6,450 nucleotides of DNA from a virus (lineage: Duplodnaviria; Heunggongvirae; Uroviricota; Caudoviricetes): IMG/VR virus record IMGVR_UViG_2698536403_000004; one strand, given 5' to 3'. Below are positions 1 to 6,450 of this stretch, piece after piece. Both the position numbers and the translations under genes were made by a program. The notes under the pieces were generated by a model. The model was given only the letters and a program-made list of their open reading frames with translations, was not told where the DNA came from and did not search any database. Each line of letters starts with the position of its first letter. Position 1 is the stretch's first letter.

Positions 1-438
1 GAATGTTGCCATGTCTTCCTGCAACAATTCCTGTGCGCTAATAACCATATCAACGGTGATGTTTTCACATGTGTCGAACTTAACCATGAGAGCGTTCTGT
101 ACTTCAGGGGCCAGCTTGTCAAAAGTGACGTTCATTAGATCGGATTCAGTCTCAACCGGGACAAAAGAAGCAGAATCCTCATCCCAGCGGTTTTCCTGCA
201 TATATTCAGCATCCCATGAATCGAGGGCAGGGCGGGGTATGCCAGGTTTATCCTCGCAGATAATAAATTTATAAGCGCAGTCCTGAGCAGCCGGATAATG
301 TTCCAGGAATTGCCAGTGAAATTTTGCTCGAGCACGGCGTTCGTCGCCAGCTTCAATAGCTGTGGCTACAGCCACAGCGCCTTCTTCCCTTGTTGCCAGT
401 TCGTCAGGAATGGCGGCGCAAATAAAGACTTTACTCAT
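1..438 (-). CDS. Hypothetical prophage early protein, acidic; 5' end complete, 3' end runs off the window (146 codons visible)
   Basis: ATG at 438..436 on minus strand with GAGGT about 9 nt upstream; frame open without stop to position 1; begins MSKVFICAAIPDELATREEG. Not in the ORF track because no stop lies inside the window. Confidence 0.55.
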   Translation of the reverse strand, partial: MSKVFICAAIPDELATREEGAVAVATAIEAGDERRARAKFHWQFLEHYPAAQDCAYKFIICEDKPGIPRPALDSWDAEYMQENRWDEDSASFVPVETESDLMNVTFDKLAPEVQNALMVKFDTCENITVDMVISAQELLQEDMATF

Positions 439-531
439 TTTGTTTTAACCTCATGACAGATTTAAGGATGAACAAATCCCTGCCATTGCTGGCATATAAG
501 AATGAAACCGGATATTTATTACGGAACTGTT

Positions 532-723
532 TTAAAGACCTGCCGGGATTTCGATATTATCCTGGTGAATAACTTTATCGACCGGGTAACAGTTACCGGG
601 AATTTTCTGTTCGGTTGCTGCAGTCATACACTCCTGCATTGTCCTGTGAACACTGACTGCAATATCAACTGGCTCTCCGGAAACAAGAAAAACTGTCAGA
701 ACAAGTGCAAATGCTGTATTCAT
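532..723 (-). CDS. Small protein (63 aa) with hydrophobic N-terminus (signal peptide or TM) and two Cys in the C-terminal part
   Basis: ATG at 723 preceded by AAGGA 8 nt upstream; start overlaps the stop of the upstream gene in an ATGA junction (721..723 / 720..722), suggesting translational coupling. Track ORF 532..777 trimmed to the RBS-supported start. Product MNTAFALVLTVFLVSGEPV... Confidence 0.45.
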   Translation of the reverse strand: MNTAFALVLTVFLVSGEPVDIAVSVHRTMQECMTAATEQKIPGNCYPVDKVIHQDNIEIPAGL

Positions 724-908
724 TGCCAGCATCCTTTTTGTATCGGACGTAAACGGGCCAGCATTGAAAGAATGCATATTTTATTTAATAACTCCCGTTC
801 GTGTTTTCTCTTGTTAATGGCATCTTCAGTAAATACAGGGTTACTGATAGTGACACCAATTTCAAAACAACCTTCAGACGTATTAACGTTTGGTAATAAC
901 GTTTCCAT
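720..908 (-). CDS. Small hypothetical protein (62 aa)
   Basis: ATG at 908 with GAGGA 7 nt upstream; track ORF 720..1013 begins at a non-ATG start with no RBS, so the internal ATG is preferred. Product METLLPNVNTSEGCFEIGVT... Confidence 0.45.
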   Translation of the reverse strand: METLLPNVNTSEGCFEIGVTISNPVFTEDAINKRKHERELLNKICILSMLARLRPIQKGCWQ

Positions 909-925
909 TATCGCGTCCTCAACAA

Positions 926-1073
926 TGAATTTTGTGATGCGGTGCCTGGTGCCTCCAGGTGACGTTAACCAGTTAACAATTAACGCCGGATACAGAGAAT
1001 CCACCCATAACACTGTTTTTGGTTTTAACTGTTCCGCGTGCGCTGAGCCGCATTCACCGCATCACAAAATTCA
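926..1073. repeat. Perfect 19-bp inverted repeat pair (926..944 TGAATTTTGTGATGCGGTG and 1055..1073 CACCGCATCACAAAATTCA) bracketing 110 bp that contains further nested palindromes
   Basis: Arms are exact reverse complements when read directly from the sequence; the interior holds CCTGG..CCAGG and GTTAAC..GTTAAC dyads; located just upstream of the minus-strand gene starting at 908. Confidence 0.8.
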
Positions 1074-1475
1074 CTTTAAAAAGGGCGGCAGAGCAGCCAC
1101 GGAGTAAAACTGATACCGCCAAACGTCACCAGAAAATTGATAACAGAGGGCGTTGCAGCGGGGTTGTCACTTAAGCGTATGGTCAACCTGACAACCCGAT
1201 GTCCTCAACGGGGAAGGAATAACCCCGCCATACTTACCGCCGCGCCATTTCGCGGAGTGCCACAACCGGAAGCGCACGGTCGACGAAAATTTAACGACAG
1301 GTTATCTATGAACCAGCTACCTCGCCGTGCGCTTTCGCGTTATGGTCTGACTTTTCATGGAAATATCCTTTCAGTAAACTGTCAGTGCCGGATGCTCACC
1401 CGTGTCCGGCGCACGCACTCCACCTCACCCGTGGAGAACTCCTTAATTACCAACCTTAGCTTCGTTGGTTAGCTA

Positions 1476-1694
1476 TTAACGCGGGTATGTAATCATTCTG
1501 GCAATGCTTAATGCCGCTGCTTTTTCCAGCCTGGTGATATCCTGCTCCAGAGCGGACAGATTTTCAGCCTGCTTAGCCCTGGCTTCATTAGCCCATTTCA
1601 GATCCTGCGCTGCATTAATTTTCTGGCGCATCCACTCATAAAGTTCATCATCGGTATAGTCTGGCGCGATGATGACGGGTTCTCGTTTCTGCAT
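1476..1694 (-). CDS. Small hypothetical prophage protein (72 aa), charged and helical
   Basis: ATG at 1694 with GAGGA 6 nt upstream; product MQKREPVIIAPDYTDDELYEWMRQ...; same strand as the leftward operon. Confidence 0.55.
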   Translation of the reverse strand: MQKREPVIIAPDYTDDELYEWMRQKINAAQDLKWANEARAKQAENLSALEQDITRLEKAAALSIARMITYPR

Positions 1695-1723: not shown

Positions 1724-1852
1724 TCAGCCGTTAGATTTTGCCGAACTGGAAAGCGCCTGTTTAAACTCACTGAAGCTGAGAGCTTCTTCGCCTTCGGCAA
1801 GGCCTTCGAAGTATTCTTCGTAAGCCTTTTCCATGATTGTGTCGAAATCCAT
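1724..1852 (-). CDS. Very small acidic protein (42 aa), below the length cutoff of the ORF track
   Basis: ATG at 1852 with GGTGA 5 nt upstream; starts 1 nt after the stop of the upstream gene (1854..1856); product MDFDTIMEKAYEEYFEGLAEGEEALSFSEFKQALSSSAKSNG. Confidence 0.4.
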   Translation of the reverse strand: MDFDTIMEKAYEEYFEGLAEGEEALSFSEFKQALSSSAKSNG

Positions 1853-1853
1853 A

Positions 1854-2090
1854 TCACTCACCTGAGTTTCTTTCCAGCCAGCGACGGGCACCATTTTCGG
1901 TTTTAAACGTTTTGCTTTTGGTATACGTCATTGCGGTGAACGTGCCGTCCTGGTTTGGAAATACGCCGTACACCAGAGATTCGTTGTTGCCAAGATCGAT
2001 AGTATCCATGCTGACCTCATTTCCCCTTAACGCCGGGGTAGCGGAACAAAAACCTGCTGCATAGTTATTAAAGTTGAACCCTGCCGTCAT
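1854..2090 (-). CDS. Small hypothetical protein (78 aa), first gene of the leftward early operon
   Basis: ATG at 2090 with GAGG about 9 nt upstream; an internal Met would give a 51-aa product, so the start is uncertain. No arginine-rich motif, so not obviously an N-type antiterminator. Confidence 0.5.
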   Translation of the reverse strand: MTAGFNFNNYAAGFCSATPALRGNEVSMDTIDLGNNESLVYGVFPNQDGTFTAMTYTKSKTFKTENGARRWLERNSGE

Positions 2091-2195: not shown

Positions 2196-2232
2196 TACCC
2201 ATAGGTATTTAAAAAGTAAATACCCATGGGTA
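2196..2232. promoter_or_regulatory. Candidate oL/pL: 16-bp-arm palindrome TACCCATAGGTATTTA-aaaag-TAAATACCCATGGGTA (15/16 symmetric) overlapping a possible leftward promoter
   Basis: Palindrome read directly; on the minus strand TTTACT, a 17-nt spacer and TATCCT fit a -35/-10 pair; the arms contain the same TGGGTATT/TAGGTATT motif seen at oR. Confidence 0.45.
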
Positions 2233-2274: not shown

Positions 2275-2694
2275 CTATGATGCGTTTTGTGCTTTCTTTT
2301 TACGGATTTCTTCGTAGATCATATTGTAATACTGTTTTTTCTCTTCAAGAGTTTTTAATAAGTTATCCGCTTCACTTTCTGGCAGTTCGTCTAAGAGATC
2401 TAAAAAAATACGTTGTCGTGGCGTTAGAACCCTTGTTTCATAACTGGAGGCTGTGTTCGTTGATGATGAAACGATACCATCCATCCATCCCCGGGGTAAC
2501 CCAAAGGACTCTTCGATAATCTCCACCATATCATCAGCGATCCGTTTTTTTCCCTTTTTCCCCTCTGGGTACAACATTCTTGATACATAAGAAGGCTCGC
2601 GCCCGATCTTTCTGGCCACGTTAACCGCTTTACCATCGCATTTCTCATCACGAATTTTGATGAGTTGCTGTCGTCTAAATTCATATTTGTCCAT
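2275..2694 (-). CDS. Prophage repressor, short HTH type (139 aa; CI/RacR-like role), no C-terminal peptidase domain
   Basis: Divergent from a Cro-like gene across an operator-rich spacer; HTH-like segment GKAVNVARKIGREPSYVSRMLY; length too short for an S24 peptidase domain. No SD upstream of the ATG and a TATTAT hexamer 5-10 nt upstream suggest a leaderless mRNA. Confidence 0.7.
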   Translation of the reverse strand: MDKYEFRRQQLIKIRDEKCDGKAVNVARKIGREPSYVSRMLYPEGKKGKKRIADDMVEIIEESFGLPRGWMDGIVSSSTNTASSYETRVLTPRQRIFLDLLDELPESEADNLLKTLEEKKQYYNMIYEEIRKKKAQNAS

Positions 2695-2722
2695 AGGTAA
2701 ATAATAGATGCGATTACTGCAA

Positions 2723-2770
2723 GGTAAACAACCTGTGGGTATTGACTTTTGTTTACCTGTGGGTATTCTT
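2723..2770. promoter_or_regulatory. Candidate oR/pR: two exact 13-bp direct repeats ACCTGTGGGTATT (2731..2743, 2755..2767) plus an 8-bp inverted repeat GGTAAACA/TGTTTACC (2723..2730, 2750..2757), overlapping -35 TTGACT (2742..2747) and -10 TATTCT (2764..2769)
   Basis: Repeats and hexamers read directly; 16-bp spacer; AAGGAG RBS at 2783..2788 precedes the ATG at 2795 of the Cro-like gene. Confidence 0.55.
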
Positions 2771-2794
2771 TGCTGTGTTTACTAAGGAGTAGCT

Positions 2795-3076
2795 ATGGAA
2801 GAATTAAGAATATTTCTCAATTCTCTTTCGTCAGATGAACAGCGTATGTTTGCATGCGAGTGTGGTACCAGCATCGGTTATCTAAGAAAGGCATTGAGTA
2901 AAGGTCAAGTGTTAGGGGCATCGTTATGTGTCCTTATTGAGCGAGCCAGTAATGGTGAAGTTACACGTCAGCAACTAAGGCCTTTTGATTGGATGAATAT
3001 TTGGCCCGAGCTGGAAGATACCAAAACGTTAACACAACCACTTTCTAGGAGCTTGATTCATGAAAATCAAGCATGA
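2795..3076 (+). CDS. ydaS: Cro-like HTH regulator of the YdaS type (93 aa)
   Basis: AAGGAG 6 nt upstream of ATG; divergent from the repressor; protein pattern ...CGTSIGYLRKALSKGQ...IERASNGEVTRQQLRPFDW resembles the YdaS/Cro-like family as I remember it; not verified by search. Confidence 0.55.
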   Translation: MEELRIFLNSLSSDEQRMFACECGTSIGYLRKALSKGQVLGASLCVLIERASNGEVTRQQLRPFDWMNIWPELEDTKTLTQPLSRSLIHENQA

Positions 3077-3485
3077 ACACATCCGCATGGCGATGAATGC
3101 CTGGGCGCGTCCTGATGGCGAAAAAGTTCCAGCAGCTGGAATAACCCAGGCTTATTTTGAGTTGGGTATAACGTTTCCTGAACTGTATGACGACAGCCAT
3201 CCGGAAGCCCTGGCTCGCAATACACAGAAAATTTTCCGCTGGGTAGAGAAAGACACCCCTGATGCTGTTGAAAAAATTCAGGCGTTGTTACCAGCGATCG
3301 AAAAGGCAATGCCACCTTTGCTGGTGGCCCGAATGCGCAGCCACAGTTCAGCCTATTTTCGGGAGCTGGTGGAGACGCGGGAACGACTGGTGAGAGACGC
3401 TGATGATTTTGTCGCAGTGGCGATTGCCGGTTTCAATCAGATGAACCGTGGTGGCCCTGCAGGAAATGCCGTGGTGATGCACTAA
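3060..3485 (+). CDS. ydaT: YdaT-like protein (141 aa), in the cII-equivalent position
   Basis: AGGAG 8 nt upstream of ATG at 3060; overlaps the preceding gene by 17 nt; N-terminus MKIKHEHI matches my recollection of YdaT family proteins; follows the Cro-like gene as in Rac-type prophages. Confidence 0.5.
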   Translation: MKIKHEHIRMAMNAWARPDGEKVPAAGITQAYFELGITFPELYDDSHPEALARNTQKIFRWVEKDTPDAVEKIQALLPAIEKAMPPLLVARMRSHSSAYFRELVETRERLVRDADDFVAVAIAGFNQMNRGGPAGNAVVMH

Positions 3486-3493
3486 AAGCACGG

Positions 3494-3715
3494 ATGGCGT
3501 TAACAATGACGGAGGGGGCTGTGAATCTACCTGATTTTTTTACTGTTCTTGCCTGTGGTATTGGTGGGGCTCTGGCCGGACATTTTATCGTGAATCTGTT
3601 CACCTGGTATCTCTTTGGTTTCAGGGATTACTTCACCCGATGGACTTTAAATTGTCTTCGTCGGTTCATTGGGCGCAAGCCTGATATGAGGATTTGGAAA
3701 GATGAAAAACGCTGA
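3494..3715 (+). CDS. Small hydrophobic protein, one predicted TM segment (65-73 aa depending on start)
   Basis: ORF with TM-like stretch FFTVLACGIGGALAGHFIVNLFTWYLFGF; the best RBS (GGAGG, 5-nt spacer) precedes GTG at 3521 rather than ATG at 3494; stop lies 4 nt from the stop of the convergent minus-strand gene. Confidence 0.4.
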   Translation: MALTMTEGAVNLPDFFTVLACGIGGALAGHFIVNLFTWYLFGFRDYFTRWTLNCLRRFIGRKPDMRIWKDEKR

Positions 3716-3719
3716 TTGT

Positions 3720-4115
3720 TTATGGCATCGGGAGGCCGTTTTTCTCCCGATATCGCTCGATCTCTGCCTGAATTGCTGCAACAGCACACATGGAGTCGTA
3801 CTGGATCAGTCTGAGATTTTCAATCGTGAATTTGTCTTCCTCCATCAGGTTGAGCATACGAAAGTATCGAAAGACGTAAACTTCTGGGCCGCTGACACCA
3901 TACCCCTTTGCCTTCGATATGGTTTGGTGGAGCTCCCATTCTTTCAATGCGAGGGTGAGAGCCATTTCTCTTATTTTTGCTCTGGCTTCAGCAGCCCGGC
4001 GTTGCGCTTCAATGGTTCGTTCCGATTTGCGTTGCCAGGCACCATTAACCAGCGAAACCACGCCAGCAACACACGCACTCAACACAACGCTACTTGTGAT
4101 AGTTGCAAAATCCAT
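3720..4115 (-). CDS. Membrane-anchored protein (131 aa): N-terminal TM helix followed by a basic, helical cytoplasmic domain; moron-like, function unknown
   Basis: ATG at 4115 with GAGGAGG 6 nt upstream; TATAAT (complement of 4155..4160) upstream on the minus strand; product MDFATITSSVVLSACVAGVVSLVNGAWQRKSERTIEAQRRAAEARAK...; positive residues after the TM place the C-domain in the cytoplasm. Confidence 0.65.
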   Translation of the reverse strand: MDFATITSSVVLSACVAGVVSLVNGAWQRKSERTIEAQRRAAEARAKIREMALTLALKEWELHQTISKAKGYGVSGPEVYVFRYFRMLNLMEEDKFTIENLRLIQYDSMCAVAAIQAEIERYREKNGLPMP

Positions 4116-4194
4116 TTCGAACCTCCTCTGGTTCTGTTGATTAGTGAATCACAGATTATAACCAGAGGAAGGTTTGGCTCCAGACGAGGTGAAC
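4116..4194. promoter_or_regulatory. Divergent promoter/RBS region between the moron and the replication gene, with an imperfect inverted repeat (4121..4133 vs 4160..4173)
   Basis: Minus strand: TATAAT then GAGGAGG then ATG. Plus strand: possible TGTTGA -35 and TATAAC -10, then GAGG 5 nt before ATG 4195. CCTCTGGT / ACCAGAGG form an exact 8-bp inverted repeat. Confidence 0.4.
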
Positions 4195-6245: not shown

Positions 6246-6450
6246 GTAAGCGTGCAGCAAGAACCGTATTGACGGGGATGTGTTATTCAGTCGGCAGTGC
6301 TACGCGCCAGGGGAGCAGTTCGCCGACCCGGCGTTACGGTCGTCACGAACGTAGGTCCATAACCGCCCGGTCTTCGTTTTCTTATTGCCTGGCAACAGCA
6401 CCGGGACAGGCGTGTCATCAGCATGGAGCTTACCGTCAGTCAGCACATAG
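6246..6450 (-). mobile_element. IS66-family insertion sequence remnant: terminal GTAAGCG end at 6246 and an internally deleted transposase; continues past the window
   Basis: Minus-strand translation gives ...HADDTPVPVLLPGNKKTKTGRLWTYVRDDRNAGS, matching the middle of IS66-type transposases as I remember them, then jumps in another frame to a C-terminal-like tail ...ELLPWRVALPTE-stop; the plus strand carries GTAAGCGTGCAGCAAGAACCGTATTGACGG at 6246, consistent with the 5'-GTAA terminal repeat of this family. Confidence 0.55.
6283..6449 (-). pseudogene. IS66-family transposase fragment with a large internal deletion and frameshift (junction near 6315..6327)
   Basis: N-terminal/middle homology ends after RDDRNAGS (about 6324); the C-terminal tail is read in a different frame (6286..6327) and ends at the stop 6283..6285. 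Confidence 0.5.

Follow-up and report, generated by a model that had tools for sequence, protein, structure and literature searches.

The two small overlapping genes at positions 532 to 908 of the window (the whole 6,450-nt stretch of DNA that was analyzed) are dicB and ydfD. With a probability of about 0.93, the region forms the distal end of a dicBF operon (ydfA-ydfB-ydfC-DicF-dicB-ydfD) carried by a Qin-like lambdoid prophage of Escherichia coli, in which the pair would act by the mechanism proposed below. The identity of both genes, their synteny, the start of ydfD, and the conservation of their junction are established here; the activities of the proteins are those found in experiments on the orthologs of E. 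coli K-12. The original prediction likened the pair to the small host-modulation, exclusion, or toxin-like modules of prophages, which was right in kind, as DicB inhibits division and excludes phages and YdfD is lytic (PMC6832061, PMC8835842). It also considered the function unknown, a statement that no longer holds, since both are named and characterized K-12 genes (b1575 and b1576). The genes, the sRNA, the operon, and the phenotypes are already present in the K-12 literature and in RefSeq, and the copy in the window departs in nothing from the known pair.

Identity of DicB and YdfD

DicB matches the Pfam family PF05358 over its entire length (residues 1-62 of 62; E=1.7e-37, 127.4 bits, cutoff 27), and scores 132.7 bits (cutoff 100) against the NCBIfam model NF049927, named "cell division inhibition protein DicB". 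It shares 55 of 62 residues (89%) with DicB from K-12 (b1575), and a 99.6%-identical locus in RefSeq carries the dicB annotation. Five of the seven substitutions relative to K-12 fall within the last 17 residues, where the window protein reads RPIQKGCWQ and the K-12 protein RLMPKGCAQ.

YdfD aligns through its residues 4-61 with the whole Pfam model PF07358 (DUF1482, positions 1-57 of 57), with an E-value of 2.1e-26 and 92 bits (cutoff 25), and belongs to PHROG 1092 (E=6.5e-37). The protein is 97% identical (61 of 63 residues) to YdfD from K-12 (b1576, "lysis protein"), with T3S and A6V as the differences, and matching loci in RefSeq are annotated as "lysis protein YdfD"; NCBIfam holds no model for it. 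In PHROGs, both DicB and YdfD are placed in families of "unknown function". No solved relative of either protein was retrieved from the PDB by sequence or profile search, the best E-values (0.21 and 0.39) being at chance level.

A close relative of the region is found in L001, an ompW-integrated prophage of E. coli 2023CK-01509 (NZ_CP141736.1), which shares 99.6% DNA identity with window positions 420-1500 and carries the same annotation. Its genes are arranged in the order integrase, excisionase, exonuclease, ydfD, dicB, ydfC, ydfB, DUF1391 (ydfA), and repressor. The features of the pair and of the operon in the window are collected in Table 1.

Table 1. Features of the dicB-ydfD pair and its operon in the window.
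Feature	Position	Strand	Description	Evidence
dicB	720..908	-	62-aa cell-division inhibition protein DicB; ORF 908->720, ATG...TGA	Pfam, NCBIfam, K-12 identity, RefSeq annotation
ydfD	532..723	-	63-aa lysis protein YdfD (DUF1482/YebW family); ORF 723->532, ATG...TAA	Pfam, K-12 identity, PHROG 1092, RefSeq annotation
ATGA overlap	720..723	-	dicB stop/ydfD start	Read from sequence; kept in 85/85 related loci
SD-like GAGGA	916..920	-	7 nt 5' of dicB ATG	Sequence; identical in K-12
SD-like AAGGA	732..736	-	Within dicB 3' end, 8 nt 5' of ydfD ATG	Sequence; identical in K-12
DicF	1083..1134	-	sRNA and intrinsic terminator hairpin	Rfam RF00039, 75 bits (gathering 48), E=1e-15, 1-52 of 52
ydfC	1476..1694	-		RefSeq annotation of matching loci; PHROG 1744
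ydfB	1724..1852	-	42 aa	Coordinates transferred from L001 annotation; ORF present
ydfA-like gene	1854..2009	-	DUF1391 gene, first of operon	Pfam PF07151, E=5.5e-28; L001 annotation
Exonuclease gene, 5' part	1..438	-	Large exonuclease gene; equivalent to ydfE pseudogene of K-12	PHROG 2082 "exonuclease", E=1.5e-104; 2472-nt exonuclease CDS at same place in L001

The dicB-ydfD Junction and the Start of ydfD

The two genes meet in the sequence GGCAATGAATAC, where the ATG of ydfD (723-721) lies over the TGA of dicB (722-720) and forms a 4-nt ATGA overlap. The pair, the overlap, and an SD-like motif before each gene had all been predicted, and all were confirmed on the minus strand by the ORF list and a reading of the sequence. 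Both SD-like motifs are unremarkable when taken alone, since 16-20% of the window's ATGs have equally good pairing with the anti-SD (within 20 nt), and the pairing energy separates the starts of dicB and ydfD neither from the background ATGs of the window nor from the ATG at 777. It is homology, and not these motifs, that gives the two ORFs their status as genes: with full-length matches to curated families and a junction kept in related loci, both stand far beyond chance. The conserved 4-nt overlap makes it most likely that translation of ydfD is coupled to that of dicB.

This arrangement depends on the start codon of ydfD. Were the true start the ATG at 777, the product would be an 81-aa protein with the hydrophobic segment in its interior, and there would be no ATGA coupling. 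The window, L001, and K-12 do all have the 81-codon frame open, a GGGAG motif is found 5' of the ATG, and the long form has often been adopted in automatic gene calls on metagenome assemblies (for example P0002, P0006, and P0055). However, the 13 nt between the GGGAG motif and the ATG are excessive for a normal SD, and the DUF1482 model spans only residues 22-79 of the 81-aa form. The additional 18 residues are encoded within dicB in a different frame and vary as in an unconstrained frame. RefSeq and EcoGene both list 63 aa, the length of the protein that was shown to lyse cells.

The divergent PPompW phages, whose DicB region has about 73% DNA identity, also argue against the longer form. Their junction reads CAGCAGTGACTT, with a GTGA overlap in place of ATGA. 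Eight codons are open upstream in the PPompW ydfD homolog and none of them is a start codon, so that the GTG in the junction is the sole possible start there. Across the family, the start in the junction is, to judge from these sequences, the only one available, and initiation at 777 appears highly improbable. The original prediction had picked the 63-aa start and had named the ATG at 777, with no signal peptide, as the start that would undo its reading. Its choice is supported by the DUF1482 model, which begins at residue 4, and by the junction start of PPompW, and the Pfam boundary, the 13-nt spacing, and PPompW speak against the ATG at 777. Another ATG at 732-730, three codons upstream of the ydfD start, directly abuts AAGGA and so leaves no usable spacing. 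In metagenome protein clusters of 170 and 140 members, ydfD is called as an 81-aa (or 85-aa) protein (532-777, minus strand).

DicF and the dicBF Operon

DicF lies 226 nt upstream of the dicB ATG and contains a terminator-like hairpin with a T-run at 1100-1085. Together with the ydf genes farther upstream, it places the pair by synteny in the PL-side early operon, in line with the prophage early region that had been predicted. [quoted passage not shown] Transcription of this polycistronic unit begins at dicBp, upstream of ydfA; derepression is brought about by the antirepressor Rem, urea, or heat, or occurs spontaneously in some 1% of cells (PMC10448788). The DicF of the window carries a G at position 38 (window 1097), where K-12 has an A (CCGUGGCUG versus CCGUGACUG). 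This base sits where loop and stem of the terminator hairpin meet and is not part of the 5' seed that pairs with the ftsZ mRNA.

The cryptic prophage Qin of K-12 MG1655 shows the same order, ydfA-ydfB-ydfC-DicF-dicB-ydfD followed by the exonuclease/ydfE, and the same ATGA overlap, SD motifs, and spacing between DicF and dicB. Its ydfC-dicF-dicB-ydfD segment is collinear with window positions 480-1500, with about 3% of the aligned positions differing (about 97% DNA identity). In contrast to Qin, where ydfE is a pseudogene cut by IS2, the exonuclease gene of the window appears intact, as does that of L001, and the gene is intact in related prophages.

The immunity region also differs from that of Qin. 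The repressor encoded at 2275-2694 (minus strand, 139 aa) resembles DicA only over 46 C-terminal residues, with 33% identity, and the rightward genes, one YdaS-like (2795-3076) and one YdaT-like (3060-3485) as in Rac, take the place of dicC-ydfX. Because the resemblance to DicA is confined to that short C-terminal stretch and the neighbors are YdaS/YdaT-like, the region (2275-3485) reads as mosaic with respect to Qin, with an immunity module of another specificity joined to the same early operon. By its position, the local repressor, rather than DicA, would control the operon. An inverted repeat with 16-bp arms (TACCCATGGGTATTTA...TAAATACCTATGGGTA) and a T-rich tail is found at 2196-2232 (minus strand), between the repressor gene and ydfA, and could be the terminator of the repressor gene or an operator at the dicBp-equivalent promoter.

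Beyond the immunity region, the window holds a 688-bp insert (3486-4173) flanked by the ydaT-like and replisome-organizer genes and absent from the replication region of the otherwise near-identical L001. The product of its ORF at 3720-4115 (minus strand) is 131 aa long and hydrophobic at the N-terminus; it gives a full-length match to the PADLOC anti-phage model PD-Lambda-6 (E=9e-90) and also matches PHROG 36733. Only 17 of 5426 complete E. coli genomes contain the insert, with the annotation "hypothetical protein". An IS66-family transposase fragment (PF03050, E=4e-9) on the minus strand at 6300-6446, the right edge of the window, suggests an IS insertion in or beside the replication/nin region of the prophage.

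Distribution and Conservation

Of 5426 complete E. coli genomes, 4750 were matched in a megablast search with window positions 420-1500, and in 3813 the match covered at least 80% of the query. In the top records, with 99-99.6% identity, the annotations read "lysis protein YdfD", "cell division inhibition protein DicB", "protein YdfC", and "exonuclease". The hosts of the pair belong to Escherichia (E. coli, E. albertii, E. ruysiae, and E. marmotae) and Shigella.

Conservation of the architecture was followed in 87 dicB loci, seven from species-representative genomes and the best 80 of at least 589 from viral contigs, these 80 having been picked for the highest DicB identity, so that they are not independent samples. 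The original prediction had called for an analysis of co-occurrence across prophages, and the pairing came out consistently: the ATGA is present in all 85 loci with enough downstream sequence, and an intact DUF1482 ORF of 62-67 aa starts from the junction in 81 of them, the ORF being truncated in the other four. The 5' motif of DicF was found on the dicB strand in 70 of the 87 loci, and its position was identical, 227 nt ahead of the dicB match, in 69 of these. At greater divergence, the same architecture is kept in the PPompW and E. albertii copies (three loci).

The pair is also carried by isolated temperate coliphages (eight records) at 92-99% identity, including mEp460_ev081 (LR597641.1), Tritos (OV696610.1), HannyBb (PP925841.1), PhiR42_1, and the vB_Eco series, and is therefore not confined to defective prophages. 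The first three phages are 96-99% identical over dicB and ydfD and carry the same annotation. A 2016 paper had reported no matches to DicB or DicF in about 2000 phage genomes (PMC5069750). One locus (JAGZPX010000007.1) comes from a 22.9-kb contig labeled "MAG: Veillonella parvula" and contains a dicB with 85% identity, an intact ydfD, and the ATGA junction. Most likely, this is an Escherichia prophage contig that was mis-binned into the V. parvula MAG.

Activities of DicB and YdfD

DicB from K-12 binds MinC, and the complex is brought to the septal ring via ZipA, where FtsZ is depolymerized and division is inhibited (PMC6832061). Through the same interaction with MinC, DicB inhibits ManYZ, and lambda and other ManYZ-dependent phages infect about 100-fold less (PMC6832061). 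Binding to MinC is assumed to be retained by the DicB allele of the window, which has five of its seven substitutions in the last 17 residues. The Kil protein of lambda and KilR of Rac are encoded in the same PL-side early-operon niche as dicB, and block the formation of the FtsZ ring, causing filamentation. DicB has no sequence similarity to Kil or KilR, and acts via MinC and ZipA instead of directly on FtsZ or ZipA.

YdfD from K-12 lyses cells when expressed (PMC8835842; Masuda, Awano and Inouye 2016, as relayed there and in PMC11430063). According to PMC8835842, co-expression of either DicB or SulA stops this lysis, from which it follows that lysis by YdfD requires active division. Levels of ydfD mRNA rise under several stresses and upon inactivation of CRISPR-Cas.

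Two small overlapping genes, with the product of the second losing its toxicity when that of the first is co-expressed, could be taken for a type II toxin-antitoxin system, with DicB as a protein antitoxin that binds and neutralizes YdfD directly. However, SulA is unrelated to DicB and suppresses lysis equally well (PMC8835842); as another division inhibitor does likewise, suppression by DicB is indirect and goes through the arrest of division. DicB is moreover toxic itself (PMC10448788, PMC6832061), the publications consulted report neither binding between DicB and YdfD nor autoregulation by the pair, and neither protein matches the defense or toxin-antitoxin models of PADLOC. Direct neutralization by DicB is thus scarcely credible, and suppression through division arrest is the reading followed below.

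The published model for YdfD involves IspG, an enzyme of the MEP isoprenoid pathway. YdfD binds IspG in pull-down, SEC, ITC (Kd 18 uM), and FRET experiments, and cells expressing YdfD are rescued by overexpression of ispG or by added HMBPP (PMC8835842). The IspG-binding part of YdfD is its hydrophobic N-terminal domain, and mutants devoid of Cys retain the binding (PMC8835842). The mechanism comes from a single study, in which the affinity was moderate and binding, rather than inhibition of the enzyme, was measured. With the hydrophobic N-terminal domain as the binding part, the interaction could be a sticky-peptide artifact.

Topology of YdfD

The N-terminus of YdfD reads MNTAFALVLTVFLVSG, and its residues 4-14 (AFALVLTVFLV) have a mean Kyte-Doolittle value of 2.95 over 11 residues. 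Two Cys follow, at positions 32 and 45. The original prediction of a hydrophobic start and two Cys in the second product is therefore accurate, and both Cys are conserved: among 24 homologs, F5, L7, V11, L13, G16, C32, Q39, K40, and I41 are invariant, and C45 is kept in at least 90%. An AlphaFold2 model built from a 19-sequence alignment places helices at residues 3-15 and 19-38, followed by a disordered tail, at low confidence (pLDDT 56.5, pTM 0.32).

The description of this product as a secreted or membrane peptide fared unevenly. The hydrophobic core is present, and V14-S15-G16 is a possible cleavage motif by sequence. However, residues 1-26 (MNTAFALVLTVFLVSGEPVDIAVSVH) contain no K or R, so that the charged n-region of a Sec-type signal is missing, and the published target, IspG, is cytoplasmic. 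Both points argue against secretion, and an association with the membrane stays plausible.

Spelled out in full, this description would have YdfD exported by means of an N-terminal Sec signal or a type II anchor, with a periplasmic, acidic, and possibly disulfide-bonded two-Cys C-terminus that damages the envelope from outside; the binding of IspG would then be secondary or an artifact. The strongly hydrophobic segment is followed by V-S-G and then E-P, as would suit such a topology, and the C-terminal part is acidic (7 D/E versus 3 K/R), a composition for which the positive-inside rule disfavors a cytoplasmic location. The conservation of both Cys fits a disulfide, and the weak Kd of IspG, its dependence on the hydrophobic domain, and the measurement of binding instead of inhibition leave room for an artifact. 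Yet the first basic residue of YdfD is R27, and its hydrophobic run extends unbroken for only 11-12 residues or so before it meets E17 and D20. Experiments on the K-12 protein point the same way: YdfD with N-terminal GST, MBP, or His tags, produced in the cytoplasm, bound IspG, FRET was observed in vivo between YdfD-CFP and IspG-YFP, the Cys-less mutants still bound IspG, and the rescue by ispG overexpression or HMBPP also goes against damage from outside (PMC8835842). On balance, export is unlikely, and the action of YdfD on IspG in the cytoplasm is kept as the published model.

Under the published model, YdfD resembles the single-gene lysis proteins E of phiX174 (target MraY), A2 of Qbeta (MurA), and LysM of phage M (MurJ), as it is small, has a hydrophobic N-terminal segment, and causes division-dependent lysis by blocking a host biosynthetic enzyme. 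It differs from E, A2, and LysM in its unrelated sequence and in its proposed target, the cytoplasmic MEP enzyme IspG. It is also not the lysis gene of its phage, since ydfD sits in the PL-side early operon of a tailed temperate phage equipped with a separate holin/endolysin system.

Proposed Mechanism of the Pair

Transcription of the operon would run along the minus strand and begin at the PL-equivalent promoter beside the prophage repressor gene, and expression of dicB and ydfD would require derepression together with read-through or processing past the DicF terminator. Once made, DicB would form a complex with MinC that reaches the septal ring via ZipA and dismantles the FtsZ ring, leading to filamentation. 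By its interaction with MinC, DicB would also disable the inner-membrane channel ManYZ and block the entry of lambda-type phage DNA.

YdfD, with its hydrophobic N-terminal segment and its acidic two-Cys C-terminus, would lyse dividing cells. In the published model, it binds and inhibits IspG, and the resulting shortage of undecaprenyl phosphate would affect cell-wall synthesis. As this lysis needs active division, it would be suppressed whenever DicB is co-expressed. The ATGA overlap would couple translation of ydfD to that of dicB, so that the lysis protein would be made only together with its phenotypic suppressor.

An extension of this mechanism would see in dicB-ydfD a linked "arrest plus latent lysis" module, in which functional coupling at the ATGA fixes the ratio of YdfD to DicB. 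In such a module, YdfD may be harmless during the division block and kill only those cells that resume division or escape DicB/MinC. [quoted passage not shown] This extension is rather unlikely in either version.

Biological Implications

As a discovery, the pair carries little weight, as dicB-ydfD is found in most sequenced E. coli. The analysis places the window in the early operon of a Qin-type prophage and confirms that ydfD has the 63-aa form, against the 81-aa form that many automatic pipelines call. If the linked module of arrest and latent lysis were true, YdfD would be a fail-safe, or an abortive-infection-like back-up, to the ManYZ-based phage exclusion exerted by DicB.
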